Part shown: piece after piece, positions 20,337-51,410 of the stretch
How the letters are laid out: every line of letters starts with the position of its first letter
Position numbering within the stretch: position 1 is the first letter of the stretch
IMG/VR virus record: IMGVR_UViG_3300044994_000135
Span: 1 to 59,008 of that record
Length of the DNA stretch: 59,008 bases
Direction: 5' to 3' (one strand)
From: a virus
Taxonomy: Duplodnaviria > Caudoviricetes
Position numbers and translations under genes: made by a program
Notes under the pieces: generated by a model
Database searches by the model: none
Seen by the model: the letters and a program-made list of their open reading frames with translations, nothing else
Told to the model about the DNA's origin: nothing

Positions 20337-20609
20337 GTGCTGCGATTATCACACGCGAGGTGCCGATCTGGATAGCGTTCCGCAAAAGTCGCCACTCGAG
20401 CTCGATACGCAGATAGCCGTGGCGGCGGTATTGGCCGCGTGTTACCGCACGCTCGCGCTCCAGCTCGCCGCCCTGGAGGGCCGGAAACACCGCGATGCTG
20501 CGGTCGAGGCTCGCGTAGCCGGCCAACTCACCGGGATCCAGCGCTGCGCCCGTTTGTTAGTTGACGATAAAACGGCGTTTCTGCGGTACGAAAACGCTAA
20601 GTCCTTGTA

Positions 20610-20690
20610 ATCACTAGTAAATAAAAGTTACGAAAATCATTGACATTATGTTAATAATAAGTGCATCATATCTGTATTGATGATGAGCGG
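20610..20690 (+). promoter_or_regulatory. Putative sigma70 promoter
   Basis: TTGACA at 20640 in an AT-rich gap ahead of a run of small ORFs; the -10 element is not clear. Confidence 0.45.
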
Positions 20691-20725
20691 TCGCGATGAT
20701 GCGGCCGCGAAACTGGAGGACAACG

Positions 20726-20974
20726 ATGGGCACCAAACAATACGTAGCAATCTCAACAGTAGATGGCGTGGCCTACGGGCTTGGCGAAACCCCAACCCAC
20801 GCCTGCGAGGACGCGCTCGCGAGTCTCGGTCTGACCGCTGAGAGCGCCGAGGCCGACCAGGTTTGGGAAACCCTGGAGGCACACCTCGCGTCCGCCGAGG
20901 TCGTCGCAAAACTCCGCTGGAGTTCACACGTGCAGCCGGTGATAGTCGACGGTGTGGCGGTGTTGGGAGCGTAG
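20726..20974 (+). CDS. Hypothetical protein
   Basis: GGAGG RBS before the ATG at 20726. Confidence 0.6.
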   Translation: MGTKQYVAISTVDGVAYGLGETPTHACEDALASLGLTAESAEADQVWETLEAHLASAEVVAKLRWSSHVQPVIVDGVAVLGA

Positions 20975-20983
20975 GAGGCGACG

Positions 20984-21256
20984 ATGAGCGATTCAAAAAC
21001 CTACTGGGTTACCGTGACCCGCACGATCGTTGCCGTTGACCACCGCGTGATCACGGCGGCGAGCGAGGCGGAGGCCCGGCGGATAGCCGCCGAGCGCTTT
21101 CTCGTCGTGCCGGAGTCGTGCGTGGTGCAAGAGGAACGTATCGACTGCCAGCCGCAGCCGACGGACCGCGAATTGTGGGAGGATATGCAAGCGTCCGAGG
21201 GCTGCGGGTACGCCGACGAGGTGAACGAGGCTGAGTTCAGCGAGGAGCGAGCATGA
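20984..21256 (+). CDS. Hypothetical protein
   Basis: AGGAGG RBS; ITAASEAEARRIA is a motif common in small phage proteins. Confidence 0.65.
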   Translation: MSDSKTYWVTVTRTIVAVDHRVITAASEAEARRIAAERFLVVPESCVVQEERIDCQPQPTDRELWEDMQASEGCGYADEVNEAEFSEERA

Positions 21257-21525
21257 GCGGATATCGGTGTACCGGGTGCAGTGGGCGGTTTCATTGCGGG
21301 GATATCGCCGGATACAACTCGCTGCGGATTGAGGGGGGATTGCGCGCGGAGTGCTGCGACGATTCTCTCTCGGCGGTCGTCCGCCGAGTCGTCCGGGAGC
21401 TTCCGGAGGGCGTAGTTACCGCGCTCGATTTTAACGGCGGAGTGGCCCACTGGCCGCCACAGCCGGGGGACGACCCGTGGTGGCTGGATTGGGCAAACGA
21501 AATCGTGGAGGAGCACAGAACGTGA
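21253..21525 (+). CDS. Hypothetical Cys-containing protein
   Basis: N-terminal CxxC; coupled to both neighbours. Confidence 0.55.
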   Translation: MSGYRCTGCSGRFHCGDIAGYNSLRIEGGLRAECCDDSLSAVVRRVVRELPEGVVTALDFNGGVAHWPPQPGDDPWWLDWANEIVEEHRT

Positions 21526-21860
21526 ACACGCAAACCGAAACCCCCCAGCCGAGCGGCGGCCCTACCTGCGGCAGGCCGCCGCGCCTTGCCAGTAACTGCC
21601 ACGCCGCCACCCCCGGCGCGATCGGGGTTCTGAGCCTCGCCGGACTCACGCCGGGGCAGTTATTAGACCGGCACTTTTCCGGGGACTGGGGCGATATTTC
21701 CGACGACGACCGGGCGGCAAACGACGCGGCGCTCGCGGGTGGCTCGCGTATTCTGTCGGCCTACCAGACCACGGCGGGGCGGGTCTGGTGCGTCACGGAT
21801 GCGGCCGGCGACGACGGGACGCGAGAACTGACAACGCTGTTGCTACCGGAGGAGTATTGA
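21522..21860 (+). CDS. Conserved plasmid/ICE-type hypothetical protein
   Basis: LLDRHFSGDWGD...ANDAAL...RILSAY...TTLLLPEEY, a signature I recognise from mobile elements. Confidence 0.75.
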   Translation: MNTQTETPQPSGGPTCGRPPRLASNCHAATPGAIGVLSLAGLTPGQLLDRHFSGDWGDISDDDRAANDAALAGGSRILSAYQTTAGRVWCVTDAAGDDGTRELTTLLLPEEY

Positions 21861-22546
21861 GCGCCGCCGAGGGGCTAATCCTGGAGTTCTGGCCGCACTT
21901 CGACACGTACCTCCGCGGCCTCTTCCGGCGCCAGCGCTACCCGGAGCACCTGCGCGACGATGCCCGGTCTCTGGCGATGCTCCGGCTCTGGCAATCGGCG
22001 CTGCGGTACGTGGCCAAAAGCCCCGAGACGACCCCCTGGCCGGTCTACGCCAAGGTGGCTATCAAATACGCCCTCCGCCGCACGCGCCGGCTGGCCCTGC
22101 GCGGCTGGGTGGTCCCGGACTCCGGCGCTGTGCTCGGGGCCTCCGGGGTCCCGTACCAACGCCAGCTGGGCATCCCCGAGTTCGTGACCAGCCACGACCC
22201 GCACCCGCACATTGACGCCCGTTTGGATGTTCGTCGCGCCGTGGCCGAGTTGCCGCCGAGGTACCGGCACGTCGTGAGCCGGTACCACTTCGACGGCTGG
22301 ACGTTCGCCGAAATCGCCGAGGAGCAGAACGGGGTTACCCGGCAGTGTACCCACCAGATGCTCCGCCGGGCCCACGGCTGGATGCGCGAGAGGGTACAAA
22401 AGGAGTGTTGCCACACGCCTGCACTGTCTCTGACGCAACGCGGCAGGCGTGCTAAACTGGACGCACGACACAGGCGCGTCAAGCCGGTGCAGCCGGGTGC
22501 ATCGAGAGGTGCCCGCCTGGTTGCGATGGCGAGCCGATCGGTGTGA
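21857..22546 (+). CDS. Sigma-70 family (ECF-like) sigma factor
   Basis: TTG start after GGAGGAG; region-2-like DDARSLAMLRLWQSALRY; region 4 LPPRYRHVV...GWTFAEIAE...VTRQ. Confidence 0.75.
   Translation: MSAAEGLILEFWPHFDTYLRGLFRRQRYPEHLRDDARSLAMLRLWQSALRYVAKSPETTPWPVYAKVAIKYALRRTRRLALRGWVVPDSGAVLGASGVPYQRQLGIPEFVTSHDPHPHIDARLDVRRAVAELPPRYRHVVSRYHFDGWTFAEIAEEQNGVTRQCTHQMLRRAHGWMRERVQKECCHTPALSLTQRGRRAKLDARHRRVKPVQPGASRGARLVAMASRSV
22430..22458 (+). promoter_or_regulatory. Putative sigma70 promoter for the structured region
   Basis: CTGACG, 17-bp spacer, TAAACT with extended -10 TG. Confidence 0.45.
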
Positions 22547-23160
22547 GAGGTACAGGCGACGCGGGTGCTGAGTGCGTGTTGCCCGTGGGCTACGGCGCGG
22601 GAGTATCGCGACGGAATACACGGCCCGGCGCGGCGGTCGGTGGGGTCATGCCCCCCATCGGTGAGCGAGCCCGACCCGGATAGGTTTCAGAGAGTCGATG
22701 CCGAGCAGCGAACGGTACGGGAGAGATGGCGGTAAGGCCCGATTTGCGCGTTACAAGCCTGAAATCTCGGCGGGGTATTCCCGCCGAGGATAGTGCCCGC
22801 GCGAGGGATCTCGCGGGATACTCCTCCGCCCCCGTGGTCGAGGAAGCCACTAGCGACGAGACTCTGATTCCGTTTGAAGCGCACTCAGTCAAAGCGGGAT
22901 CGTTTCGCGTGCGCGGTTTATCTGGATATACCGCAAGGTTTTTCATGTCGACGACGGCGGCGGCGCGGTTCTGGTCGGGCAACCGACCGGGCATGTTGCA
23001 CGCGGGCGAACGGAGGGGGCGAGTAGGGGACTCGGCGGGCAAGGCAGTCCGTATGGGCGAAAGCCCCCACCGGTTTTGATGCGGCCGATTCGCGGGTGCG
23101 CGCGCTACCGGAAAGGAGCAAATGCGTCGCACCCCGATCGAGCCCCTGGCAGGTGTCCCG
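22465..23160 (+). ncRNA. Candidate large structured non-coding RNA
   Basis: No credible ORF beyond the sigma tail. Hairpins at 22766-22788, ACC-GCAA-GGT (22930), GGTCGG-GCAA-CCGACC (22973), GGGC-GAAA-GCCC (23055) and GGGTGCG/CGCACCC (23094/23128). Confidence 0.5.
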
Positions 23161-23201
23161 GCGTTTCGAGAATATCGTCTAAATAATTCTCACTTTGGTC
23201 T

Positions 23202-23927
23202 ATGCAGGATTACCTCGTCAAGGACACCCACGCGCTCGTCCAGCAACTGGCGATGCGGCTGCTCAACCACGGGTACCACTTCTATTCCACCTCCTGGATC
23301 CCGGAGAGCAAGGACCCGCGCGCCGTCGACGTGAAGTTACTGCTCCGCTACGGCGGCTACCTGAGCAAGTTCGCCGTCCACCGGCGGCACAAGCAGCACG
23401 GTGCCGCGAAGGTGCGTTACTTGCGGTGCGGGCGGCTGGTGGTGCTGGTCGCCACCGCGGGGGGCTCCCCATTTTGGGACTGCGAGGGCAGGAACATCCG
23501 CGACGCCCGCGAGAGCCCGCTGCACGTCGCGGGCTACGCCCTCTCCCCCACGAGGGTGCGGCTCCACCGCGAGGTCTACAACCGCCTGGCGCGGCAGTAC
23601 CTCGACGGGTGGGCCGTCCGCCGGTCGGCGGCGTGGCTCGAAGAGAAGCTCCGCGCGCTGCCGTTCGACCCGGGGTACGCCGGGGTGCGGGCGCAGGTGG
23701 TGACCCTGGCCCGCGCGCTGAACGTCCGCCGCAAGGCCGCCCGCCTGCCCCCGGTCGCCATCGAGAACTGTTTCCGCACCAAGCGGCTCGCGCCACGCAA
23801 GGTCTACCTGCCGATCCCGGACGACGTGCGGCAGGCCGTTGAGCTATACGCGCCGACGCGCTACTCTCGGGATAGCTCCGACGAAACGGAAGCGAGCTCT
23901 GCTGGGAAGCAACTCGCCGAGGGATAG
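23202..23927 (+). CDS. Conserved hypothetical protein of mobile elements (Planctomycete-type from recall)
   Basis: LVQQLA...HGYHFY...IPESKDPRAVDVKLL...VRYLR; Arg-rich, probably DNA-binding. Confidence 0.7.
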   Translation: MQDYLVKDTHALVQQLAMRLLNHGYHFYSTSWIPESKDPRAVDVKLLLRYGGYLSKFAVHRRHKQHGAAKVRYLRCGRLVVLVATAGGSPFWDCEGRNIRDARESPLHVAGYALSPTRVRLHREVYNRLARQYLDGWAVRRSAAWLEEKLRALPFDPGYAGVRAQVVTLARALNVRRKAARLPPVAIENCFRTKRLAPRKVYLPIPDDVRQAVELYAPTRYSRDSSDETEASSAGKQLAEG

Positions 23928-24254
23928 TCGGGGCCGAGTGACGGTGAAGAGCTTTTAGACTTTGAGGAGTTTAAGGAGCCCGCACACTGCAAGGCCGGTC
24001 CTTCCGTGTGCGGGGGCTCACCTCACCAGAACTCTCCGGATGCCTCAAAAAATCCCTCTTGTGTAGTTTCGGTTGCTCTTTACATCCTCGTTGCGAGTAG
24101 AAGAAAAGTTTTTATCGTCGTCCCCGCCTTTCGCCCGTGCCGTGCCTCTCGGTGCGCGTCAGGGCCGAGGGGCGGATGACGCCTGAAAGGTTTTTACAAC
24201 CGGCAGATTGCCGCCCCTCGGTCCCCGTTACCCAACGCGCCGAGGAGGTGCAAA

Positions 24255-25040
24255 ATGTCGGAAGCGAAGTTGATCCTGCACAAGGGTGCGCGACAGGTGT
24301 CGCCGGACGAGCTGCGCGAGGTTCGGCCTCCGCAACCCGTCGGTCGGTGGCACCCGATCTCGCACCACCGCGTGCTGTCCGTCGTGACCCAGACGCTCAT
24401 TGAAGCGGGGTACGCGACGGAGAAGTCCCAGCTCGGGCTGTCCCCGGACGGCCACCGGTTCTTCGGCGTTCTGCGGCTGACGCACCAGATCGCTCACGGC
24501 GTGACGCTGGCCGTCGGGGTGCGAAACAGCAGCGACAAGACGTTCCCGCTGGGGTTCGTCGCCGGGTCCTCGGTTCTCGTTTGCGACAACTTGGCGTTCC
24601 GCTCGGAACTCCTCGTCCGCAAGAAGCACACCCGGTTCGGCGAGCAGCGGTTCGTGACGGCCATCGCCGGGGCGGTCGGGGCGCTGAAGTCGTTCCAGGA
24701 GGCGGAAGCCGAACGGATCGAGCGCTTCACCCGCGCGGAACTCACCGACGACCAAGCCGACGCGCTCATCCTCCGGGCGTACGAGCGCGGCATCATCGGG
24801 GCGCGCGACCTGCCGCGGCTCATCCGCGAGTGGCGCACCCCGGCGCACGCCGACTTCAAGCCGCGCACCGTGTGGTCCCTGTTCAACGCCTTCACCGAGG
24901 CGCTGAAGGAGCGCGTGACGGCGCGCCCGAGCGAGTACGCGCTCCAGACGATGCGGCTGAACGGCCTGATCGACGCGCACCTGCCCGCGCGGCCCGCCGT
25001 GCTGTCCCTCCCGGAGGCCCCGCCCACCGTGGCGGTGTGA
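24255..25040 (+). CDS. DUF932 domain protein
   Basis: WHPISH, GVRNSSDK, VLVCDNLAF, KKHTRF and TVWSLFNAFTE. Confidence 0.85.
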   Translation: MSEAKLILHKGARQVSPDELREVRPPQPVGRWHPISHHRVLSVVTQTLIEAGYATEKSQLGLSPDGHRFFGVLRLTHQIAHGVTLAVGVRNSSDKTFPLGFVAGSSVLVCDNLAFRSELLVRKKHTRFGEQRFVTAIAGAVGALKSFQEAEAERIERFTRAELTDDQADALILRAYERGIIGARDLPRLIREWRTPAHADFKPRTVWSLFNAFTEALKERVTARPSEYALQTMRLNGLIDAHLPARPAVLSLPEAPPTVAV

Positions 25041-25134
25041 TCTCCGGGGCGGCGTGATCTCCGGGGCGGCGTGATCTCCGGGGCGGCGTGATCTCCGGGG
25101 CGGCGTGATCTCCGGGGCGGCGTGATCTCCGGGG
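25037..25134. repeat. 17-bp tandem repeat, 5 full copies plus a partial
   Basis: GTGATCTCCGGGGCGGC starts at the DUF932 stop codon; no spacers. Confidence 0.95.
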
Positions 25135-25243
25135 GCGGGCACGGACGCCCGCCCCTCTCTTCGCCCAGGTTCTCTCACAACCCCCAACCCCCACGCGGAC
25201 ACCACCACATGTCCCATCCCCTCAGAAACGGAGTGCGTGCCAC

Positions 25244-25630
25244 ATGGCTGGTAAAAAACGCGGTGACGTCGGCCAACCGGCCGAAGCGGAAGCCCAAGGC
25301 CAGCAGGCCGCCCAGCAGCAAACCGGCGAACGCCGACCGCCCGCGCACGAGGTCCAGTTGGGCCGCGTGAAGGCCGTGGTCTGGGAAAACCACTCTGACG
25401 CCCACGGGCGGTGGTTCTCGATCACGTGCGGTCGCAGCTACAAGGACAACTCCGGGAACTGGCGCACCGCGCAGAGCTTCGGTCGGGATGACCTGCTGGT
25501 CCTCGCCGAGTGCCTGCGGCAGTGCTACCTGTGGGTCGCCGACGCCATGCTTGACGCCGGGAACGGCACAAACAGCAACGGCAACGGCGGCACGCGGGGG
25601 CAACAAGGCAGCGCGGACATTCCCTTCTGA
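25244..25630 (+). CDS. Small ssDNA-binding-like protein
   Basis: VKAVVWEN...RSYKD...GNWRTAQSFGRDDL and an SSB-like C-terminal DIPF tail. Confidence 0.7.
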   Translation: MAGKKRGDVGQPAEAEAQGQQAAQQQTGERRPPAHEVQLGRVKAVVWENHSDAHGRWFSITCGRSYKDNSGNWRTAQSFGRDDLLVLAECLRQCYLWVADAMLDAGNGTNSNGNGGTRGQQGSADIPF

Positions 25631-25653
25631 CGACTTCTGACGACTTCTGACGA
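25624..25653. repeat. 10-bp tandem repeat, 3 copies, over a stop codon
   Basis: CTTCTGACGA at 25624, 25634 and 25644. Confidence 0.85.
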
Positions 25654-26145
25654 CGATGCGAAGCGCGAGCAGCAGTGGAGCCGCTTTGCGGCGGGGAGGG
25701 GTTGCGTTTTCGGGTACCCAATCGGGTTTTCCGTTTTCACAACCCAAGGCGTCATCCGGACCCCTCCCTGTTGTCTCCGAGCAGTAAGTTTGTACAATGG
25801 GCGCGCCTAGGCGGCGCAAAGGGCCAGGATCAGATCTTTGTCAACTCACGTAACGCCAGCTGACGCGACTGGACACTTAGTTTTTGCGACACTCACTTTG
25901 GCCTTCTTTTGAATAAGATTCAAAGCTCTCAGCATCATTTGAAACTCAAAGACGCCATCAAATTTTTTTAAGTTATTTTCTAATTATAATTTGAATATGT
26001 AAGTATATTTCCTTATATTGTTCTCAAATCGCGCTACTCTCCAGTAACTCGAAAACGCGGAAGGTGCGCATTCCCCCAATAATCTCCTGCCGCCGAGGGA
26101 AGGCCCCGACAGCGGCCTTCAGACTTTCAAGTAGGACCACACCCC

Positions 26146-26924
<779 letters not shown>

Positions 26925-26928
<4 letters not shown>

Positions 26929-28097
26929 GCACCACCTTTACGGGCATCGACGGCGTGACCACCTACCGCGTGGACCTGGACGACCCGCCGTTGGTTCAGG
27001 GCGGCGAGAAGGCGATCCACCCGGTGAAGAACCATGCGGGCGAGGGCCTCTGCGCGGCGGTGTTCCACGCGCGCCCGGTGGACAAGCGGGTGGCGCTGAA
27101 ACTGGAGACGCTGCTCTGTCTGCGCCTCGACCCCCGGAAGTTCGTGGCCATCGAGGACCTGCTGATCGACTCGACCGACGGTCGGTGCCACGGGTACGTG
27201 ATGCACTGGCGACCGGACGCCATCCCGCTCTCGTTGTGCCGCCCGGAGACGCTGTGGGCGCGCGTGGAGCTCATGCGACAGGTGGCGGAGATCTTCGCCG
27301 CGTGCGACCGCATGGCCGCGCCGTCGGTGGTGATGACGGACCCGAAGGCCGACGGGTTCATCGAGCTCCCCGACGGCACCGTGCTGATGGTGGACGTGGA
27401 CAGCCTGGCGCTCTGCGGGACCGGCGTGCGAGACCCCGACGACCCGAGCGAGCTGATCGAGGTGCTGCCCGGCGGGCCGGGGACGGACGGCTACCGCAGC
27501 CCTGAGCGGCTGCTGTTCCCGGAGTCGACGCCGGTGCGCGGGGACGCCCACTTCGCGCTCGCCGTGATCATGTTCGAGCTGGTGGCGGGCTTTCACCCGT
27601 CGGCCATGGTCGGCGCTCCGTGCAAGCTGCGAACGCTCGACGAGCGGGTAGCCTCCGGGCTGTTCGTGCCGTTCCTAGACGACCCCGAAGCCGCCATGGG
27701 CGGGGGCAAGGTGCCGCGCTATGACCCGGCGTGGAAGGAGCTCCCGGCGGAGTTCCGGGAGTTCTTCAGGAACGCCCTCTTGTGCGCCCCGGGGGACCGG
27801 CCCACCGCCGAGAAGTGGTGCTCGTACCTGACCAACCTGCCCCGGCGGCACTGTCCGCCCCCGCCCCCGCCCCCGCCCCCGCCGCCGTCCCTCCCTCTGC
27901 CTGCGCCGCCACCAGTCGACACACCGCCGCACCCCCCGCGGGCGCGTGTCTGGCCCCCCGCGGCGCTGGCTCTCGCGGTCGCCTTGGCCGGCGCGCTCGC
28001 GGCCTGGTGGGTTTTGGTGCGTACGCCGGCGACCATCGAGCAGATCCCCGATCCCGTAGTGCCCGCTGTTTTCCCGGCTACCCCCCTCAAGGAGTAA
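26925..28097 (+). CDS. Ser/Thr protein kinase-like (YegI-type) membrane protein, possibly a pseudokinase
   Basis: QGGE, GYVM, MTDPKADG, VDVDS, GTDGYRSPE, DAHFALAVIMFEL...HP and RPTAEKW; poly-Pro linker and C-terminal TM helix; ATGA-coupled to the vWA gene. Confidence 0.78.
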
Positions 28098-28103
28098 CCC
28101 GCC

Positions 28104-28370
28104 ATGGTCGCTCGCGTCCCTAGCCCCAAGACCAAGCGCACCAACAACGTGATGGTCCGCCTCAGCTCCCCCGAGCTGGAGGCCGTTCTCGCCGCCAAGC
28201 CCGACGACGTGCCGCTGGCCGTGTACCTGCGGGAGCGCATCACCCGCTCGGCGGACCTGCGCCTGGTGGCGGCGTTCATCGTCGCCGCGCTGTCGCCCGA
28301 CCTGACGCTCGAGGCGACGCTCAAGCTGTTCGACGAAACCATGGGGGGGCTCGGCCATGAGTGTGACTAA
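28104..28370 (+). CDS. RHH / MobC-like relaxosome accessory protein
   Basis: KRTNNVMVRLSSPELEAV...LAVYLRE; overlaps the relaxase start. Confidence 0.6.
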   Translation: MVARVPSPKTKRTNNVMVRLSSPELEAVLAAKPDDVPLAVYLRERITRSADLRLVAAFIVAALSPDLTLEATLKLFDETMGGLGHECD

Positions 28371-30039
28371 GGCCACCGCGCGTTACGGCTACGCCCCGGA
28401 CATGAACCGCGAGGGGGAGCTGACCGGCGAGCCCGTCGGGGTGTACACGGCGCAGACCAAGAGGTTCGAGCCGACGGGGCTCACGTTCGCCGAGGCCCTG
28501 GCGGCGCACGGCATCCAGCGGGACGACAGGGTGACGCACTTGTGCAGCACGCTCGATAAGCCCGCGTCGCTGCTCTGCGCCGGCGTGTTCTTCCCGCCGG
28601 ACAAGGCGATGGAGCTGCGGCAGGTGGCGCGGGAGAAGGTGCACGAGCTGCTCGAAATCTGCGCCGCGAACGGCGAGATCCGCAAGGGGGCCGACGGCAA
28701 GGTGCGCCTCGACGCCGTGCCCGTGGCCATCGTCACGGTGGTCCACGACCGCACCTACACGGAGCGCAAGGACGGCACGGTCGAGGACCTCCCGCACTGG
28801 CACGTGCACGCGTTCAAGGCCACCACGTGCGTCACCGAGGACGGTCGCACGGGGCAGGACGCCAGCTTGCGGGACAACTACTACCGCACGCAGACGGCCC
28901 GCGCCGCCGAGCTCAGCAAGGCCGTGCAGGACGCCGCGGTGGCGATGGGCGTTGAGACCAGGGTGACCCGCGACGGCCGCGGCTGGGGCGTGGTCGGCTA
29001 CCCGGACGCGTTCGTCAAGGCGATGTGCTCGGGCAAGGACCGCATCGACCGCGCGATCCTGGAGCGGGGGCTCGAAGGGACGAAGTTTGCCCGCGAGCGC
29101 GACCAGGCGGCGCGGGACCGGCCTGACCGGGCGCGCCCGCCGATGGACCAGATCCCGCCGCTGGAGGAGTCGCGGGCGCGGTGGGAGCAGAAGGGCCGCG
29201 AGTTCGGCTGCGAGCCGCTGAAGCTCCGCCCCCCGGAGAAACTGCCGGACGCGCGCGCCTCGCAATATCTGGCGGCCGAGATCGTGCACAAGGCCGTGGT
29301 GAGGGCCGCCGCCGAGACGGCCAGTGCCGGGGCCGGGTTCTCGGACGTGCAACTGCGGCAGGCGGCGTTCGAGGTGTCGTTCGCCTACCCGCAGGTGACT
29401 GCCCCGCAGGTGGCCGAGGCCGTGCGGCGGGTGCTCGACAAGCCCAAGATTCACGGCCTGGAGCGCGTGGACGGTGCGGCGCAGTTCAAGCTCGTGCAGC
29501 CGGAGCTGAAGAAGGAGGCCGCCGCCGTTGCCGTTGCCGCCGGGCCGCCGCCGAAGCTGCCCAAAGCGCCGCCGCCGCAACCGCCGGAGGCTCTGCGCCC
29601 GCCGCGCCCCGGGGACGCGATCAAGGAGCGCAAGAGCACCCCCGACCGCAAGCCCGCGCCGCCGCCGGTCATCAAGCTCGACGCCGACCGCCCGGACCAG
29701 CTCGGCCGGTTCCTCAAAGAGCAGCGGCGGTACTCGCTGATTCGCCGTCACGCCGAGGCCATCTTTCGCGGCGTCATCACCGAGTACGGCGACATGCACG
29801 CCATGCTCGACAGAGCCCAGCGGAACTTCCGCGAGTACACCCGCGAGAACGCCCCGCGCCTGCCCAAGCGGACCGAGATCGTGGTGAGTAACGCGCAGAA
29901 ACTGGACCTCACGCAACTGCGGGCGCTCGTGCGCCTGGAGCGCGAGCACGGCCGCGGCGTGACGGTGCGGCTGACGTACCCCGAGCAGCGGCGCAAGGAG
30001 CCCGAAAAGCCCCAACGGAAGCAGGAGCCCCAACGATGA
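28357..30039 (+). CDS. TrwC/MobF-type HUH relaxase without a recognisable helicase domain
   Basis: N-terminal YGY; STLDKPASL; VHDRT...DLPHWHVH (three-His motif); PDAFVKAMCSGKDRI. Confidence 0.78.
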   Translation: MSVTKATARYGYAPDMNREGELTGEPVGVYTAQTKRFEPTGLTFAEALAAHGIQRDDRVTHLCSTLDKPASLLCAGVFFPPDKAMELRQVAREKVHELLEICAANGEIRKGADGKVRLDAVPVAIVTVVHDRTYTERKDGTVEDLPHWHVHAFKATTCVTEDGRTGQDASLRDNYYRTQTARAAELSKAVQDAAVAMGVETRVTRDGRGWGVVGYPDAFVKAMCSGKDRIDRAILERGLEGTKFARERDQAARDRPDRARPPMDQIPPLEESRARWEQKGREFGCEPLKLRPPEKLPDARASQYLAAEIVHKAVVRAAAETASAGAGFSDVQLRQAAFEVSFAYPQVTAPQVAEAVRRVLDKPKIHGLERVDGAAQFKLVQPELKKEAAAVAVAAGPPPKLPKAPPPQPPEALRPPRPGDAIKERKSTPDRKPAPPPVIKLDADRPDQLGRFLKEQRRYSLIRRHAEAIFRGVITEYGDMHAMLDRAQRNFREYTRENAPRLPKRTEIVVSNAQKLDLTQLRALVRLEREHGRGVTVRLTYPEQRRKEPEKPQRKQEPQR

Positions 30040-31736
30040 CGCCGACGAATCCGTACGCGCCCGAGTTCCAGCAACTCCGCGGCCCGCAGTTGCTCCACCG
30101 GCTAATGGTGGACGGGGGCCACCCGACCATCCTGATCGCGGGAAGCGTGCCGTGGCCGTTCGGGTGGACGAACAAGGGCATCATCTATCTCGGCGTCCCC
30201 GGCTGCGGGAAGTCGGTCGCCATCAAAGCGCAGCGGGCCTCGCTCTCGCCGTACTACCGGCAGCGCGGGGCGCTGTTCCGCGAGTTCGTGATCGACCCGA
30301 CCGGCACGTACTGGGACCACGCCGCGCGGACGCTCCCGCCGGGCGTGCCGATGCTCAACCTCTCGCCGCACTTTGAGGGGTCGCGGTTCTGGGACGTGGC
30401 CCGCGAGACGAACAACGAGCCCGTGATGCTGATGAACCTCGTCGACGGCCTCATGGGCGTTCACGAGCAGAGCGGGGGCATGACCAGCTCCGACCCGTTC
30501 TGGCCCCGGAAGGCCCGCGTGGTGGTGCAGCATCTGATGACCGTGTTCGCCGAGCGCGCCGGCCCGCGCTGGCGGCTGGCCGACGTGGTGCGGGCGCTGT
30601 GGTACCCGGAGTTCCTCGCGCCCATCCTCGCGCAGTCCGCGAGCACGCGCGGCAGCGCGGCGCACGAGATCACCGGCAAGATGGGCAAGGGCATCACGGC
30701 CACGGCCTCGGCGGAGCTGAACCAGCTGGGGATGGTGGCGGCGTTCAGCGACTCGTGCGGGAAGGGGTTCACGTTCCGCGAGCAGTTCGACCGGAGCGTG
30801 TTCATGCACCTGGCGTTCGACCCGAACATCGCCGAGGGGTACAGCCGGTACTCGGCGGCCATGGCCCACATGCTGTACCTGGTCGCGTGCAGGCACGGCA
30901 GCGAGCTCAACCGCACGTTCGTCTTCGCCGACGAGGCCCGCGAGATGCGGAACTTCCGCATCCCGGAGATGCTGGCACGGGGTCGGCAGTTCGGGCTCTC
31001 GCTCACCCTGGCGGCGCAGGGCATCGAGGGCCTTGTTTCGCAATGGGGGGAGAAGGCGACCAAGGAGATGATGGGCCTTATGCAGACCATCGTGGCGTTC
31101 GCCAGCACGCCCGACACCGCCGAGTACCTGTGCAAGATGCTCGGCAAGCGCGATGGCATCGAGACCAACCACACGACCGGGACCTCCGAGGCGCGAGGCC
31201 GCACCGAGGGCCAGTCCTTCAGTGACTCGAGCTCGCAGACGCACAGCTTCACGTGGAACGGCGCACGGCACCTCACACCAGACCACTTCCCGCCGCGCAT
31301 CGTGCCGTCGCCCGCGGCGAACGCCCACCCGTGGGCGCCAAACGTGCGCTGGATTCACACCGGGTCGAACGTCTCGAACTCGCGCAGCTACACAAGCAGT
31401 GGCAGCATCAGCACGACCACGACCACCAGCGCCTCGTGGACGGCCAAGCTCTCCACGCGCGACACGCTCGTGCCGTGGGACCTCGTCGGCCAGCGGATGC
31501 CCGACCCCCACATCGACGAGCTGGACTGCTACGTGATCAGCCGCGAACTCGGCGGCGTTGGCAAGGCTCGCTCCCGCTGGCTGCACGTCCTGGCCGCCGA
31601 CCGTCTGCGTGCGCACGCCCCGTCGCTCGTGCCCAAGCCCCCCGCGCACGGCACGCTCCGACGGTTCACCCGAGACGACCTTCAGCGGCTGGGTCTGGAC
31701 CTGACCGACGAGCTGCTCGCGGCCTTTAATTCTTAA
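30036..31736 (+). CDS. Type IV coupling protein-like ATPase (TrwB/TraD DNA-binding domain), no membrane anchor
   Basis: Walker A GVPGCGKS; VIDPTG; DPFWPRKAR; Walker B FADEA; GRQFGLSLTLAAQ; TAEYLCKMLG. Confidence 0.82.
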   Translation: MTPTNPYAPEFQQLRGPQLLHRLMVDGGHPTILIAGSVPWPFGWTNKGIIYLGVPGCGKSVAIKAQRASLSPYYRQRGALFREFVIDPTGTYWDHAARTLPPGVPMLNLSPHFEGSRFWDVARETNNEPVMLMNLVDGLMGVHEQSGGMTSSDPFWPRKARVVVQHLMTVFAERAGPRWRLADVVRALWYPEFLAPILAQSASTRGSAAHEITGKMGKGITATASAELNQLGMVAAFSDSCGKGFTFREQFDRSVFMHLAFDPNIAEGYSRYSAAMAHMLYLVACRHGSELNRTFVFADEAREMRNFRIPEMLARGRQFGLSLTLAAQGIEGLVSQWGEKATKEMMGLMQTIVAFASTPDTAEYLCKMLGKRDGIETNHTTGTSEARGRTEGQSFSDSSSQTHSFTWNGARHLTPDHFPPRIVPSPAANAHPWAPNVRWIHTGSNVSNSRSYTSSGSISTTTTTSASWTAKLSTRDTLVPWDLVGQRMPDPHIDELDCYVISRELGGVGKARSRWLHVLAADRLRAHAPSLVPKPPAHGTLRRFTRDDLQRLGLDLTDELLAAFNS

Positions 31737-31753
31737 CCCGGAGTTGGCACCCC

Positions 31754-32488
31754 ATGAAGACCTTTTTCTCCATCATCTTCGGGGTTGCGCTCGCCTGCTG
31801 CGCGAGCGCCCTGGGGATGCTCGGCGGCTGCGTCAAAAAGCCCGAACCGCCGCCGCCGGAGAACGTCGGGGACCCGAACGCCTCCGTCAAGAAGACGAAC
31901 GAGGTGATCCGCGGCAACCTGCGCGCCATCCGCGAGCGGCTCTCCGCCGCGCGGAGCGAGTACAAGCTCAACGCCGACATCGGGAGTGACCTCCTGGGCG
32001 CGACCGAGGAGTTGCTCAAGCTCTCCGGCACCGCCCGCGACGACTGCGACCGCATGATCCGGGCCGCCGACGACATCCGCTGGGACCTGCCGCGAGCGGC
32101 CATCGGGTACAAGGCCAACGCCGACCGCTGCCGCCTGGACGCCGAGCGCACCAACGACGAGCGCATGCGGGGCATCCACCTGCAAACGGCGGCGATGATG
32201 GACCGGTACGCCGCCGAGGTCCCACGCCGGATGAAGGTGACCGAGGAGTTCCTGGCGTCGGCCAAGCAGACCCGCGCGCTGCTGGCCGAGAGCGAGCGCA
32301 CCTTGCGCGTGCAGTGGGAGGCCATGGTCATCGGCACGACAGGGGCGGAAAAGCCCGCCGTGCGGATCGAGACCAAGGTTTACATGGCGCAGTTCGAGCA
32401 GTTCTTGAGCGTGGTCGAGCGGTTCTACCGGGAGTTCGGCGAGCCGCCCCCGGTGGTAGCGTCCCCGGCGGCCCCGCCGCAGGGCTGA
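31754..32488 (+). CDS. Putative helical lipoprotein
   Basis: Signal peptide with lipobox LGGC; coiled-coil-like body. Confidence 0.7.
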   Translation: MKTFFSIIFGVALACCASALGMLGGCVKKPEPPPPENVGDPNASVKKTNEVIRGNLRAIRERLSAARSEYKLNADIGSDLLGATEELLKLSGTARDDCDRMIRAADDIRWDLPRAAIGYKANADRCRLDAERTNDERMRGIHLQTAAMMDRYAAEVPRRMKVTEEFLASAKQTRALLAESERTLRVQWEAMVIGTTGAEKPAVRIETKVYMAQFEQFLSVVERFYREFGEPPPVVASPAAPPQG

Positions 32489-32503
32489 GGGCATCAGGGC
32501 AAG

Positions 32504-32550
32504 AAAAAGCCCCGGCCGCCGATCCCTGGGGTAGGACCGGAGGCCGGGGC
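32504..32550 (-). terminator. Intrinsic terminator downstream of the integrase
   Basis: GCCCCGGCC...GGCCGGGGC stem with an A-run on the plus strand (U-tail on minus). Confidence 0.55.
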
Positions 32551-32619
32551 GGGTTTGGAGAGAACCCATGAACAACTTGGACAACCCGGCGCTGATGAGA
32601 CGCCGTGCGGGGGAGAGTA

Positions 32620-33639
32620 TCAGCTCACCACCTGCTGCGCAACATCTCGCATGTGTTTTACCCGCTCTTGCAACTGCGAATAGTGCCTCATAACCATGTC
32701 CGTGCTGGTGTGCCCGACCAGCTCGGCCACCTTAACCGCGTCCACGCCCCGTTCCAGGGCGTCGGTGACGTAGGCCCGGCGGTAGCTCGTGGCGGTGAAG
32801 TGGCCGAGCTCCGGGAACTTCTTGCGGAGGTTGCGGAACCGGATGCGGATGGAGTTGCGGTTCCAGGGGCTCCCGCGACTGTTGAGGAACAGCGGCCCGT
32901 CGGGGTGAGCGCGGACCAGCTCGCGGGTGATCTCCAGCATCCCGGCGGTGAGGTACACCACGCGGGGCTTGCCGGTCTTGTTGGCGGTCTTGTGCTTCGG
33001 GAGCGTCCACGTCCCTTGCGTGAGATCGACGTGCTCAGCGGTGAGGACACACAACTCCCCGGGCCGACACCCGGTCTGTTCGAGCGCCGTCAGGACGAGC
33101 TGAAAAGCCGTGTCCTTGATGGCCTTGAAGATCTTGCCCCGCTCATCCACCGTCAAGTATGCGAGCACACGGTTAGGAGCGGGGACGTCGATCCCGTGAA
33201 TGGGGTTACGCTGGAGTTTCCGTCGCTTAACCGCCCAGTTGAACATTCGCAGGAGAGAGCGGAGGGCGTGCCGCCGGGAGCGCTTCCAGGAGGGGTTCTC
33301 TTCCACCCACGATTCGACCAGTTCGATCGTGATGCGATGGGGCGGTGTTTCGCGGACTCGCTTGTATCCGAGGAACGACCGCAGAAAGTGCCGGACTTGA
33401 TCGTAGGTTTGAGCTTCGCGGTGTTTCTTGAGCCAGGCCAGGTACTCCGCCGCGAGGCAGCCGGTAGTGCCCTTCGACTCTTCGTCTGGAACGTGCCGCT
33501 CGGCCATGAGCCGGTGGTACTCTCTCTCGGCAGCGGGCTTGTTGTCGCGTCCCCGAGCGAGCGGCGTCTGCACGCCGTCGATCCAAACGCACCAGGTGTC
33601 CCGAGCCGTCCAGAACCAGGGCTTGCGAGGTCGGGCCAT
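32620..33639 (-). CDS. int: Tyrosine recombinase / integrase
   Basis: TGCRPGE, HKT, SYRR (HxxR-like), LVGHT and RHY; N-terminal arm-binding-like MARPRKPWFW. Confidence 0.92.
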   Translation of the reverse strand: MARPRKPWFWTARDTWCVWIDGVQTPLARGRDNKPAAEREYHRLMAERHVPDEESKGTTGCLAAEYLAWLKKHREAQTYDQVRHFLRSFLGYKRVRETPPHRITIELVESWVEENPSWKRSRRHALRSLLRMFNWAVKRRKLQRNPIHGIDVPAPNRVLAYLTVDERGKIFKAIKDTAFQLVLTALEQTGCRPGELCVLTAEHVDLTQGTWTLPKHKTANKTGKPRVVYLTAGMLEITRELVRAHPDGPLFLNSRGSPWNRNSIRIRFRNLRKKFPELGHFTATSYRRAYVTDALERGVDAVKVAELVGHTSTDMVMRHYSQLQERVKHMRDVAQQVVS

Positions 33640-33677
33640 ATGCGGATCTCCTCCGTAGAAGGGAATCCGCCGTCGAG

Positions 33678-34042
33678 TTCCGTGACAAGATTCCGTGACA
33701 TATGCTACGTCGGCACAATCGCGAAACGTTGAAAAGTGCTTGTTTTCTAGGGCTTTTCTGCGTTACTGTCGAGTTACTTCGGGGAGACTTCTTTTGGTCC
33801 CGAACCAAGCGCTCTACCAAGCTGAGCTACAGCCCGCGATCTCAAGCACCCACGTTTTCGGCGGCGTTCCCAAGGGTTTGGTTACTCGGACGCCGATATC
33901 TTACCGCCCGACGGGCACGAAACCAGCCCAAAAATTCCCCGGGGAGAAACTCGGCGGTTCCGGGCGGTTTCGCGCGGTCTTCTGGCGGTTACGTGTCAGT
34001 TTCTCGGCGGTTCCGTGCGGGTTCCGTGTCACTTCCGTGACG
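33678..34042. mobile_element. attP-like site with arm-type repeats flanking a tRNA fragment
   Basis: TTCCGTGACA at 33678 and 33691; TTACGTGTCA, TTCCGTGCGG, TTCCGTGTCA and TTCCGTGACG at 33989, 34011, 34022 and 34033. Confidence 0.7.
33794..33836 (-). pseudogene. 5' half of tRNA-Pro(CGG)
   Basis: CGGGCTGTAGCTCAGCTTGGTAGAGCGCTTGGTTCGGGACCAA gives the 5' acceptor strand, D arm and anticodon arm; no T arm or 3' acceptor strand follows. Confidence 0.88.
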
Positions 34043-34219
34043 CCGGTGCCCATCCGCCGCGTCGAGCTCCGGGTCAGGCGGCTCGCACCTCGGCGGGCAC
34101 GCGCAGTGTTTGCGACACCGGAAACACACGTAGCACGGCGACCACACGCACGAGCAAACGCCGTGGAGCCCCCGGAGCATGCAGCAGGCGCAGCGATAGG
34201 TCCTCATCCCCCCATTCAA
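33989..34219 (-). CDS. Possible Cys-rich small protein
   Basis: 11 Cys within about 35 residues; the 3' end overlaps the att arm repeats. Confidence 0.35.
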   Translation of the reverse strand: MNGGMRTYRCACCMLRGLHGVCSCVWSPCYVCFRCRKHCACPPRCEPPDPELDAADGHRRHGSDTEPARNRRETDT

Positions 34220-34397
34220 GCGCCCGATCCGCCGTCGCGCAAGGCCAGTCTGAACGCCGTTTTACATTTTCCTCCACGAGCGCTCAACCAGTTAGCGTCT
34301 CTCAAACGCTGTTTATCGTAAAAACATGTGGCCTTCGCGCCGGACGATCGATCTTAATCACTGAGGGGCCGACGGATGGCCCGAAGGAGGAAAACGC

Positions 34398-34658
34398 ATG
34401 AAAACAATACCTGAGAAACTGCTGGAAACAATCCTGCACCACACCCGCAGCTATGAGGCGGCCAAGCGCGAGCGTGACATGGAGCGGATGCGGAGCATCG
34501 GCGACTACCTGCACGGTCTGCAAGACGGGCTGGCGCTCTGCATCGACCCGGGCCTCGTGAGAGCGGTGTTTCGCGGGGCGCGGCAGATCGTCGAGACGGA
34601 AACGCCCGACGGCGCGTTCGTCCCGGCGGCCAACGGCGGCCTGCACCGGGTAGCGTAG
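34398..34658 (+). CDS. Hypothetical protein
   Basis: AAGGAGG RBS; 86 aa. Confidence 0.65.
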   Translation: MKTIPEKLLETILHHTRSYEAAKRERDMERMRSIGDYLHGLQDGLALCIDPGLVRAVFRGARQIVETETPDGAFVPAANGGLHRVA

Positions 34659-34659
34659 T

Positions 34660-34688
34660 AAAAAATTGGGATCGAGGCTTGATCCCAA
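34660..34688 (-). terminator. Hairpin with U-tail on the minus strand
   Basis: AAAAAA-TTGGGATC-GAGGCTT-GATCCCAA. Confidence 0.45.
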
Positions 34689-34701
34689 AATTGAAATATA
34701 A

Positions 34702-34989
34702 ATGACTGATTGGATGGAGAACAACATGAACAACTTAATCCCAGAAAATATCGACGAGAACCTGAAGCGCTGGACCGTGATCGGCTCGGTCGCCGGAGCG
34801 GTGATCGTCAACCTGGCGGCGTGCAGCGGGTTCGAGGTCGGCGGGAAGCTTGGCGTTTACCGCGTTGATACACGCTCGGAAGTACAACAGACGTTCCGCA
34901 GCAACCTCCCGCTCAAGTGCTACCTGTGGGCCGATTGCACCGGGCAGGCACAAGCGGCAGACGAGGCCGAATTCCCGAGAACGAAATAA
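34702..34989 (+). CDS. Putative small lipoprotein
   Basis: Hydrophobic stretch ending in lipobox LAAC. Confidence 0.6.
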   Translation: MTDWMENNMNNLIPENIDENLKRWTVIGSVAGAVIVNLAACSGFEVGGKLGVYRVDTRSEVQQTFRSNLPLKCYLWADCTGQAQAADEAEFPRTK

Positions 34990-35001
34990 TAGGGGGCAGC
35001 C

Positions 35002-35184
35002 ATGTTTGATGAAATCAAGAAGAACATTTTCACCGTCCACGGCGTGCTGACCACGATGATCCACGTGTTCCTGGCGGTCGGGTTTGTGACCACCTGGGTG
35101 ATCGTGCAGGTCCACGTTTTCGGCAACGACCCAACGGCGGTGCTGCAAGGGCCCACGGCCTCAGCGCCGAAGGGCAAGAAATGA
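35002..35184 (+). CDS. Small membrane protein
   Basis: One long hydrophobic helix; ATGA-coupled to the SLT gene. Confidence 0.6.
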   Translation: MFDEIKKNIFTVHGVLTTMIHVFLAVGFVTTWVIVQVHVFGNDPTAVLQGPTASAPKGKK

Positions 35185-35759
35185 AGGCCGGGAAGCCCGG
35201 CAACAACGGCGGGGGCCTCTTGGCCCTCGCCGCCATCGGGGCGGTGTTCTGCTCCCCGCCGAAGTTCAGCGGCGGCTGGGCCGGCCCCCTCGATGGGGGC
35301 TTTGCCCACACGCGCTGGCACATCCTGCGATTTTACGGCGCGAAGGCCGAGCCGAGCAGGGCGACGATCAAAACCGAGGTGGTGCGGGCGGCTAGGAAAT
35401 ACGCCATCAGCCCGAAGCTGCTCGACGCCGTCGTACGGACCGAGAGCGCGTACAAGACCCGCGCCGTCTCGAGGGCTGGGGCGATCGGGCTAGGTCAGGT
35501 CATGTCGTCGAACTCGCTGGCGTGCGGCTTGTCGTCGGCGGACCAGTTGTTTGACCCGGTGCGCAACCTCGACTGCTCCGCGCGGATACTGTCCGAGAAT
35601 CTGCGACTGTTCGGCGGCAACGTGGACCACGCGCTCATGGCCTATAATTGGGGGGCGGGCAGGGTTAGGGCCTGGCTCAAGTCCGGGCAGTCGAGGAGCC
35701 GCGTACCCGCCGAGACACGGGCGTACGTCCCGCAGGTGCGAGCTCACATGGGTTCGTGA
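35181..35759 (+). CDS. Lytic transglycosylase (SLT domain)
   Basis: AVVRTES, AVSRAGAIGLGQVM, ALMAYNWG and ETRAYV; N-terminal hydrophobic segment. Confidence 0.9.
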   Translation: MKAGKPGNNGGGLLALAAIGAVFCSPPKFSGGWAGPLDGGFAHTRWHILRFYGAKAEPSRATIKTEVVRAARKYAISPKLLDAVVRTESAYKTRAVSRAGAIGLGQVMSSNSLACGLSSADQLFDPVRNLDCSARILSENLRLFGGNVDHALMAYNWGAGRVRAWLKSGQSRSRVPAETRAYVPQVRAHMGS

Positions 35760-35772
35760 TATACTGCCCGCC

Positions 35773-36207
35773 GTGCCCCGGCGGGTTTTCGACCCCTCCG
35801 CACCTCTACGAAAATGCCGTGACTGCTCAAGGCAGTTCAACCCCTACTATTTCCCGTACGACGGCTGCCGGTGTCGGCGATGCCACAGCAACCACCGCCA
35901 CCGCGAGTACACGCGCTCGGGGCGGCGCAAGTACGACGCCGACAGCAAGCGCCGGAGTAACTACCGGCTGCGGTACGGCGTCGAGCTGGAGTGGGTCGAG
36001 CGGCGCACCGAGGAGCTCGGCGGGTTGTGTTCGATCTGCCGCGAAGAGCCCACGAGCCGGAAGTTGATGGTGGACCACTGCCACGCCACCGGGGCGGTGC
36101 GGGACCTCCTGTGCGTCCGGTGCAACAACACCCTCGGCTGGGTCGGCGACTCCGTGGACGTACTGCAACGGATGATCGAGTACCTTGAACGCTACAGGCC
36201 CAAATAG
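35773..36207 (+). CDS. Endonuclease VII-like HNH nuclease (start uncertain)
   Basis: CSIC...VDHCHATGAVRDLLCVRCNNTLG. Confidence 0.85.
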   Translation: MPRRVFDPSAPLRKCRDCSRQFNPYYFPYDGCRCRRCHSNHRHREYTRSGRRKYDADSKRRSNYRLRYGVELEWVERRTEELGGLCSICREEPTSRKLMVDHCHATGAVRDLLCVRCNNTLGWVGDSVDVLQRMIEYLERYRPK

Positions 36208-36419
36208 CCCGCGGCGTCATTCAGGTACGCGATGGCCTGCAGGAGCAGGGCGTGCGCGTCGGCGAGCCACGCGGCCTCGGGGAACAACGGGCGCAAGCCC
36301 TCCACCATGGCGATTAGCGCGGCAAGGACAACGGACAGGGCGACGATCCAGTGCTTGCGACTCTTGAGCCGCTTGACGACGGGGAACCGAGCGAGGACGA
36401 AGGCGAGGATCTTTTTCAT
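36192..36419 (-). CDS. Putative holin
   Basis: 75 aa with a basic N-terminus and hydrophobic helices; last gene of the lysis cluster. Confidence 0.6.
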   Translation of the reverse strand: MKKILAFVLARFPVVKRLKSRKHWIVALSVVLAALIAMVEGLRPLFPEAAWLADAHALLLQAIAYLNDAAGYLGL

Positions 36420-36460
36420 GGCTCCATTATCTGAGGATCTTTTTCATGGCTCCATTATCT
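36405..36460. repeat. 28-bp perfect tandem duplication of the holin RBS and start
   Basis: GAGGATCTTTTTCATGGCTCCATTATCT at 36405 and 36433. Confidence 0.9.
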
Positions 36461-36465
36461 CACGA

Positions 36466-51322: not shown

Positions 51323-51353
51323 ACTTTAACCTACCTACACAACTGGCCGCGCC

Positions 51354-51389
51354 GTGGGTGCCGGGAGAGAATCCCCCGGGGCACCCCAC
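51354..51389. terminator. GC-rich hairpin after the tail tube gene
   Basis: GTGGGTGCCGGG...CCCGGGGCACCCCAC; U-tail is weak. Confidence 0.4.
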
Positions 51390-51410
51390 AGCGTAGCACC
51401 CGAAAAACTA

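Follow-up and report, generated by a model that had tools for sequence, protein, structure and literature searches.

The IMG/VR virus record IMGVR_UViG_3300044994_000135 (Duplodnaviria; Caudoviricetes) is 59,008 bp long, and this whole stretch is called the window below. Between 23.2 and 34.1 kb it holds a block of genes resembling an integrative mobilisable element (IME), among them a relaxase, a type IV coupling protein (T4CP) and a tyrosine integrase beside a phage attachment site (attP). The rest of the window carries the genes of a tailed phage. The relaxase, T4CP, integrase and attP share one molecule with a complete set of virion genes. A hybrid of this kind had been proposed from the letters of the sequence without database searches, and that earlier account is referred to as the sequence-only reading.

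The record is classed as 'linear' with a CheckV completeness of 100%. Its terminal 177 nt (1-177 and 58832-59008) are identical at 175 of 177 positions, with mismatches at positions 29 and 50. The record closes into a circle of about 58,831 bp, in agreement with the ~58.8 kb circle proposed earlier, and the molecule is circular or permuted. The two mismatches explain the 'linear' class and indicate strain variation inside the assembled population. The overlap falls within the gene for the portal protein (2-1222, minus strand, continuing at 58455-58831 across the record ends; phrog_145, 1.9e-34).

Together with the portal, the large terminase (TerL; 1194-2615, minus strand; phrog_10250, 1.2e-9) and the major head protein (55609-56490, minus strand; phrog_267, 3.8e-6) identify a tailed phage (Caudoviricetes). 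A scaffold protein (PHROGs, 2.8e-17) with a protease-like gene beside it, a tail protein (7.2e-9) and an endolysin/lysozyme (PHROG 2.1e-9; Pfam Phage_lysozyme 6.3e-7) fill out the head-tail-lysis set that had been claimed, and a 1350-aa protein without a family match occupies the customary tape-measure position. The structural genes are on the minus strand, from ~59 kb round to ~2.6 kb and from 58.5 kb down to 36.4 kb. Replication is represented by a PrimPol-D5 helicase, an SNF2 helicase, a DUF2800/PD-(D/E)XK nuclease and a recognisable Enc34-type single-stranded DNA-binding protein (SSB; 12787-13368). A sigma-factor-like gene closes the rightward early operon, which ends at 22,546. A tRNA scan of the window gave no complete tRNA gene, and an Rfam search gave no family.

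The window might instead be an integrative element with a captured defective prophage or a particle-making remnant, with no infectious route. Many tail-region proteins lack a family, and the runs that contain the sequence are labelled metagenomes. Against this, CheckV completeness is full, a collinear operon holds intact genes for head, packaging, tail and lysis, and the record is an unintegrated circle at about 50x depth. We regard a non-phage of this sort as highly unlikely.

The gene model of the block, taken from frame-specific GC content at third codon positions (GC3), consists of nine plus-strand open reading frames (ORFs) between 23202 and 32488, followed by 32620-33639 on the minus strand. 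The core lies at 24.2-34.1 kb and the block measures roughly 10-11 kb. Four of its genes exceed curated Pfam cut-offs: those for DUF932, the TrwC relaxase, the T4CP and Phage_integrase. Two homologous loci serve for comparison below, one in a Planctomycetota metagenome-assembled genome (MAG) labelled Fimbriiglobus (L002) and one on a metagenome contig with a GC of 0.50 (L003).

The central gene of the block encodes a MOBF-like (TrwC-fold) HUH relaxase of 560 aa (28357-30039, plus strand; PF08751, 5.4e-10), with a Pfam TrwC score of 39.8 bits at a cut-off of 25. The HxH metal site (H149, H151) is invariant in all seven aligned sequences, and an upstream histidine (H130) is invariant in the three closest. 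Y10, also invariant in the three closest, fits the N-terminal catalytic tyrosine of such enzymes; a tyrosine is aligned in six of the seven sequences, the seventh being N-terminally shorter. A KxxS motif, which we take to be typical of TrwC/TraI, is conserved in the alignment. An AlphaFold2 model of the protein (pLDDT 79) was compared with known structures by Foldseek, and all 23 matches listed at E<=0.001 are TrwC/TraI relaxase domains, the best being 1omh (8.8e-11, TM-score 0.71). A sequence-level PDB search gave nothing meaningful for the relaxase or for the block T4CP. The enzyme shares its fold, N-terminal tyrosine, KxxS motif and HxH metal site with TrwC of R388 and TraI of F and pKM101. 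It differs from them in its low identity (15-20%), its position below the MobF cut-off and its lack of a C-terminal helicase domain; Pfam finds no helicase family in the 560 aa, unlike TrwC/TraI, and the canonical planctomycete TrwC in the Fimbriiglobus genome (G001) carries AAA_30 and UvrD_C_2. The sequence-only reading had called this gene an HUH relaxase and staked the hybrid on it. The Pfam match, the HxH, Tyr and KxxS motifs and the TrwC fold found by Foldseek all support the call.

The next gene encodes the coupling protein that had been predicted for the block (30036-31736, plus strand; TrwB_AAD_bind 8e-19, TraG-D_C 8.1e-14). It matches a third Pfam family, T4SS-DNA_transf, and the TrwB_AAD_bind match spans profile positions 3-346 of 387. 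Walker A (GVPGCGKS) and Walker B (FVFADEA) motifs are present, as are the nucleotide-binding and all-alpha domains by which a VirD4/TrwB coupling protein is recognised. Identity to the L002 and L003 homologues is 29-32%. No hydrophobic 19-mer above threshold occurs in the block T4CP or at the N-terminus of these homologues; that of L002 has one internal hydrophobic segment (198-217).

The tyrosine integrase (32620-33639, minus strand; PF00589, 3.4e-19; phrog_1, 2.4e-44) is the single six-frame PF00589 match in the window, where no resolvase or serine recombinase was found either. Beside it, at 33678-34041, lies an unsplit attP with arm-type repeats on both sides of the 5' half of a tRNA-Pro(CGG) gene. 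The exact arm sequence TTCCGTGAC occurs three times in the window, always within this interval (at 33678, 33691 and 34033), and degenerate GGTTCCG-type copies are present at 33950-34030. The tRNA half, 46 nt long (33836-33791, minus strand), is placed between the two arm sets. It matches positions 1 to ~46 of the tRNA-Pro(CGG) of the Fimbriiglobus MAG at 45 of 46 nucleotides and diverges beyond. Integrase and att site with arms on both sides are as described in the sequence-only reading.

Since the arm sites flank one core on both sides, attP is unrecombined, and no second copy of the core was found elsewhere in the window. Entry of the block by its own integrase is unlikely on these grounds, as had been argued before; an origin by tandem accretion was considered and rejected for want of a second att core. 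As the only recombinase found, the integrase would act on the whole 58.8 kb circle, which upholds another of the earlier proposals, and the block appears to be the only integration module of the phage. Elements that target tRNA genes usually carry the 3' part of the tRNA. The attP described here carries the 5' half (positions 1 to ~46) of tRNA-Pro(CGG), so that on integration the tRNA would be restored from the phage-borne 5' half and the phage-side upstream region, at the end far from int.

The joining of phage and block was examined in Logan per-run contigs, which were assembled separately by another pipeline and compared over 18.5-37.5 kb. Four runs, labelled hot-spring and microbial-mat metagenomes, contain 99% of the sampled words of 19.0-29.0 kb; the equality of their sizes suggests two data sets, each deposited twice. 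The left junction is bridged with 0 differences by contigs from runs X1 (record 3, 19969-25066) and X3 (record 11, 19969-24652), and the right junction, again with 0 differences, by X3 (record 16, 27896-37500). At the right junction of X1 two contigs meet within the tRNA fragment. All other contig breaks coincide with internal repeats (25.07-25.13, 26.18-26.23 and 27.85-27.90 kb). Depth is alike over phage and block, at ~46-58 in X1 and ~24-41 in X3, with no step at either junction and local rises at 19.8-20.4 kb and 33.7-35.0 kb. In run X5 the exact pieces listed for the phage part and for the block are both at depth 2-4. Eight 'joints' listed in the contig comparison were discarded; their sides were only 20-22 nt long and they had been flagged as unreliable.

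At 33716-34983 the summed depth in X1 is about twice the baseline (116 and 99 against ~50), and it is relatively higher still in X3 and X5. Contigs diverge into unlike sequence before 33947 and before 34614. The extra depth and the loose ends point to another replicon in the sample that shares ~1 kb (about 33947-34983), comprising the P' arm and the first rightward genes. The loose-end sequences are absent from the window and from the fetched loci, and the 33.9-35.2 kb stretch is absent from the Fimbriiglobus MAG.

These data bear on the idea that phage and block form a chimera, in which assembly wrongly joined the phage to an unrelated IME present in the sample. The metagenomic source, the rise in GC inside the block and the replicon sharing about 33947-34983 would be compatible with it. 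The unbranched contigs from two runs that cross both junctions with 0 differences, and a depth that co-varies in three runs, argue the other way; the coverage step named by the sequence-only reading as a sign of chimerism was not seen when both junctions were checked. A chimeric assembly is unlikely, and we find it barely credible.

The relatives of the block were sought widely. A relative of the relaxase, P0006, is encoded on a 101-kb contig of 'MAG: Fimbriiglobus sp.' (Planctomycetota). The gene order at the corresponding locus, L002, follows that of the window, with identities of 73% for DUF932, 68% for the 128-aa protein, 29% for a Pkinase, 40% for the 88-aa protein, 25% for the relaxase, 29% for the T4CP and 35% for the protein at the lipoprotein position. 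Two extra genes follow, one for an MT-A70 methylase, and then an integrase on the opposite strand (25%) which directly adjoins a complete tRNA-Arg(ACG). Contig L003 has the same order from kinase to integrase. A search of the MAG for direct repeats of the tRNA-Arg region, which would mark the far end of that element, gave none above 16 nt. Judging from the synteny, the block is one member of a conserved family of small tRNA-integrated relaxase plus T4CP elements, of the iMOB type of IME.

Contig G001:C2 of the MAG also carries a canonical 912-aa TrwC-plus-helicase relaxase (27351-30089), 30 kb upstream. At 49344-53521, just left of the syntenic module, a second integrase adjoins a tRNA-Ser/Ser/Ile cluster, and another DUF932 gene comes after it. 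This contig may hold several elements in a stack.

The synteny with the MAG, the 72% nucleotide identity of DUF932 and the tRNA-Pro match suggest a Gemmataceae-like planctomycete as the host. The impression of a planctomycete-like origin in the sequence-only reading is supported by the synteny and by the tRNA match.

Close relatives of the phage itself were not found in IMG/VR with relaxase, TerL or T4CP. The 50,697 reference phage records held no match to relaxase or T4CP, and 72,556 plasmid records none to the relaxase. A word-index protein search with the relaxase returned the query itself only, and a relaxase profile (A2) matched nothing in genome or metagenome contigs. The canonical planctomycete TrwC domain has one match among the reference phages, an unannotated 16-kb 'Bacteriophage sp.'. 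Relatives of the portal among 401 Planctomycetota genomes are restricted to 23-27% matches in eight genomes.

Homologues of the phage structural and replication proteins are lacking in L002, in L003 and over 100 kb of the contig in the MAG, and the flanking ORFs scanned in the homologous elements matched no Pfam family of phage structure. The elements related to the block thus stand without homologues of the genes of this phage beside them, which would suit a passenger module: an IME gained by illegitimate or homologous recombination, of which the phage uses only integrase and attP, while the rest is cargo and maybe decaying. Such a passenger would also agree with the single instance of the combination, no related phage with the module having been found, with the failure to find a helper type IV secretion system (T4SS), and with the composition of the block, whose GC is 0.682 compared with 0.642 in the rest of the window and whose mean GC3 is 0.90 compared with 0.81. 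Tetranucleotide usage tells against it. The correlation between block and phage parts is 0.95-0.97, that of phage parts among themselves 0.93-0.94, and by this likeness the composition gives no sign of a recent foreign insert. In addition, the ORFs of the module are all intact, with very high GC3 and conserved catalytic motifs, and on general reasoning a useless 10-11 kb would burden a size-limited capsid. A passenger remains a doubtful explanation, although it is one to be taken seriously.

The other genes of the block are less well characterised. At its left edge is a 241-aa ORF (23202-23927, plus strand; GC3 0.91) with no family in Pfam, PHROGs or NCBIfam and no homologue in L002, L003 or G001:C2. 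Its structural neighbours in the ESM Atlas include reverse-transcriptase (RVT_1) clusters, below the bar for naming, and the closest clusters contain unnamed proteins of Pseudomonadota and Planctomycetota. The DUF932 protein (24255-25040, plus strand; PF06067, 2.8e-9, above cut-off) had been named correctly before; it shares 73% aa identity with its L002 counterpart and is present in ordinary phages as well, and is not diagnostic of the block. Directly 3' of its stop codon an iteron-like tandem array (25030-25134; family D1) contains about six copies of a 17-bp unit. The copy number is uncertain because Logan contigs break at the array and a 47-nt piece there has about 3x depth.

A conserved hypothetical protein of 128 aa follows (25244-25630, plus strand; 68% identity to L002 over 71 aa). 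Its ESM Atlas neighbours are hypothetical proteins of Planctomycetota and Verrucomicrobiota. The earlier label 'SSB-like' for this gene is not supported: no family was found in Pfam, PHROGs or NCBIfam, and the recognisable SSB of the phage lies elsewhere, at 12787-13368. The intergenic region that comes next (25631-26145) contains three TTCTGACGAC repeats (25626-25656) and an AT-rich stretch of roughly 160 bp (~25880-26040), where the local GC drops as low as 0.37-0.56, against 65% for the genome; it is a candidate origin of transfer (oriT) or promoter. The 17-bp array, the TTCTGACGAC repeats and the AT-rich stretch may represent either iterons with an unwinding element or an oriT. The repeat-rich and AT-rich 25.0-26.15 kb upstream of the operon is most likely the best place to look for oriT, as far as sequence features can guide.

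What had been read as a single long ORF (26064-28097) is better taken as two genes. The first encodes 260 aa (26146-26928, plus strand; GC3 0.90, from the frame plot) and has no Pfam or NCBIfam family; a DDASGSM stretch in it resembles by eye the metal ion-dependent adhesion site (MIDAS) motif of von Willebrand factor A (vWA) domains. The second, whose start codon is not fixed, encodes a kinase-like protein (26979-28097, plus strand) with 27-29% identity to the proteins at the same position in L002 and L003. These are Pkinase proteins (2.4e-14 and 3.6e-9); the window protein itself has no Pfam match. In all three loci a protein of ~255-275 aa and then a kinase-domain protein stand directly upstream of the RHH-like and relaxase genes (window 26146-28097; L002 7741-9754; L003 7735-9687). 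A kinase within a mobilisation operon is unusual.

Between kinase and relaxase is a gene for an 88-aa candidate relaxosome accessory protein (28104-28370, plus strand). The ORFs that immediately precede the relaxase gene in L002 and L003 are 40-44% identical to it, and it has a marginal PDB profile match (E 0.011). The name ribbon-helix-helix (RHH), given to it earlier, finds no family match and is retained here as RHH-like for the conserved position and a strand-helix pattern seen by eye. The last plus-strand gene of the block encodes a lipoprotein (31754-32488), as had been suggested, in which a signal peptide and an LGGC lipobox were recognised by eye; its hydrophobic segment covers residues 1-27, and identity to the same-position proteins of L002 and L003 is 31-35%.

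Outside the block, the packaging operon contains another ATPase of the T4CP superfamily (2714-4579, minus strand), with Walker A/B motifs and two N-terminal transmembrane segments (13-52). The sequence-only reading had placed a second coupling protein in this operon. The position of the gene, which together with a DNA methylase gene lies between a candidate small terminase gene (TerS; 6027-6464) and TerL, and its membership of the superfamily agree with this. The matches are weak, at 25.8 bits for TrwB_AAD_bind and 26.1 bits for TraG-D_C, just above cut-off, and the family is unrelated to the block T4CP, to which a pairwise comparison detected no similarity. The second ATPase belongs to a family with 248 proteins at E<=0.001 among 8000 scored, 40-58% identical to it in the best 120. 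Members are ~620-830 aa long and come from many phyla; the few with names are 'TraM recognition domain-containing protein' of Deltaproteobacteria and Bdellovibrionales MAGs, and an unnamed one is from a Dadabacteria MAG. A 48%-identical homologue adjoins the protelomerase gene on the linear Leptolyngbya plasmid pLBX (L029 14656-16725). None of the 401 Planctomycetota genomes matched at 1e-20, nor did the Fimbriiglobus MAG; a pattern scan with its profile (A5) found no close relative in IMG/VR, and the 50,697 phage records gave a single match at 12% coverage. It looks like a separate insertion, outside the mobilisation block. The lytic jumbo phage 0305phi8-36 reportedly has TraG/VirD4- and FtsK-like DNA-translocation genes, with no mention of a relaxase, and is a precedent for T4CP-superfamily ATPases in a tailed phage.

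To the right of the block, an SLT lytic transglycosylase gene (35181-35759, plus strand; PF01464, 1.9e-24) is present where it had been noted before. A perfect 28-bp tandem duplication (36405-36460; family D14) overlaps the start of the minus-strand ORF 36192-36419.

The linkage of block and phage in one molecule, the gene content, the intact motifs, the lone integrase and the unsplit attP are established, and the hybrid structure is real. We propose that the window is the excised or virion form of a temperate planctomycete phage, probably from a hot-spring mat, whose lysogeny module, atypical for a phage, is the integrase/attP end of an IME, a fusion of phage and IME to which we give, with the mechanism below, a probability of about 0.55. 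The integrase would recombine attP with the host tRNA-Pro(CGG), and the 58.8 kb circle would integrate and excise as a whole. Once it is free, its oriT would be nicked in cis by the relaxase together with the RHH-like protein, a step that would support rolling-circle replication of the excised circle. Given a compatible mating pore, the T4CP would pass the relaxase-bound strand to it, and the genome could leave the cell in particles or by mobilisation. One circle may in this way have two means of spread.

A number of results weigh against this proposal. The relaxase family is small, with six relatives in a full HMMER pass of 1.84 billion representatives, and the NCBIfam MobF score is 36.7 bits at a cut-off of 100. 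The block T4CP is without the N-terminal membrane domain of canonical coupling proteins. No 11-mer is common to the three homologous intergenic regions of window, L002 and L003, and no oriT was identified. A six-frame search for PF03135 (the VirB4 N-terminal domain) and PF12846 (AAA_10), the only two VirB4-type families searched, found nothing in the window, which is in line with the earlier statement that VirB4 is lacking. These families gave nothing above cut-off in the Fimbriiglobus MAG either, and PF03135 was found in one of the 401 sampled Planctomycetota genomes; pores of other types could have escaped these two families. With VirB4 nearly undetected, a helper pore is hypothetical. The junctions were bridged by contigs and not by long reads, and the four runs may be the data behind the record itself. 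Finally, no second phage carrying the module was found in IMG/VR, the reference phages or the 401 Planctomycetota genomes. A second transfer route is a reasonable suggestion from the gene content, weakened by the lack of a detectable pore in the likely host lineage and by the single instance.

The near absence of VirB4 from the phylum sample would also be expected if relaxase and T4CP served the DNA metabolism of the phage, in relaxase-primed rolling-circle replication of the excised prophage, as in integrative conjugative elements, or in the handling of DNA at the membrane. Relaxases are established drivers of replication in integrative elements that have excised. The block includes an iteron-like array and an AT-rich region, and the T4CP is soluble, with a lipoprotein gene next to it. 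The phage has its own replication set (PrimPol-D5, SNF2, Enc34-type SSB and PD-(D/E)XK nuclease), on the other hand, and the same module is found in elements with no homologue of the genes of this phage nearby, so that this alternative is unlikely. The relaxase profile detects 14 of the 401 genomes, mostly through TrwC-plus-helicase proteins of 800-960 aa. It is conceivable, at rather long odds, that planctomycete elements with a relaxase, a T4CP free of transmembrane segments and a lipoprotein use no VirB4-type pore, and are exported by phage particles or by an unrecognised route across the envelope. The window would then be helper and hitcher fused in one genome, and DNA would be prepared by the relaxase and T4CP, possibly joined by the membrane-anchored second ATPase beside the terminase, for transfer by a route distinct from both classical conjugation and classical packaging.

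The proposed fusion of phage and IME would have consequences beyond this record. Gene transfer by phages and gene transfer by conjugative elements are as a rule considered apart from each other. A phage with a relaxase, a coupling protein and an integrase of its own would be one replicon to which, in principle, both routes are open; if true, two routes would change what is expected of host range, and would provide a direct test case for the merging of hitcher and helper. The record also points to mobilisable elements of Planctomycetota that form a conserved but so far undescribed family; the searches brought up few mobile elements from that phylum. Relaxase elements occur there although almost no VirB4-type pore was found.

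Several known systems resemble the window in part. iMOB-type IMEs are integrative mobilisable elements with their own relaxase (PMC11389934). The block has in common with them a tyrosine integrase with a tRNA att site, a relaxase and a T4CP, and no mating-pore gene of the two VirB4-type families searched. It differs in that the module sits in a 58.8 kb circle encoding a full virion, and in the absence of the MT-A70 methylase of the homologous elements. Tandems of a phage and an integrative and conjugative element (ICE), of which 612 have been recorded across seven phyla, arise when two complete elements, both equipped with an integrase, accrete site-specifically; the ICE part is 40-76 kb long with virB4, virD4 and relaxase, and the authors state that these are not hybrids (PMC13651849). 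There too a phage excises together with a conjugation-related element, and the two could move jointly. The window has one integrase, one attP, no internal att site, no VirB4 and a phage-typical size, and does not consist of two accreted elements with a full T4SS.

Phage-plasmids persist as plasmids with replication and partition genes (PMC7969092; PMC12282955). They share with the window the presence of virion genes and plasmid or conjugative functions in one replicon. The window differs in being integrative and in that its extra genes are mobilisation genes; no Par or Rep family was found among the ORFs scanned, which did not cover all small ORFs. Screens for phage-plasmids have searched phages for relaxases with CONJscan (PMC7969092). 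According to a 2025 review, conjugative phage-plasmids and conjugative integrated prophages are not known, and the transfer of prophages by conjugation is known only with the help of separate ICEs (PMC12282955). No description of a tailed phage with its own relaxase and T4CP was found in the literature as far as it was available; Table S4 of one screen, a list of phages with plasmid or conjugation hits, may name relaxase-bearing phages (PMC7969092). The closest description of what is so far a single record is a phage-IME fusion, a new variant of the known composites of phages and conjugative elements.

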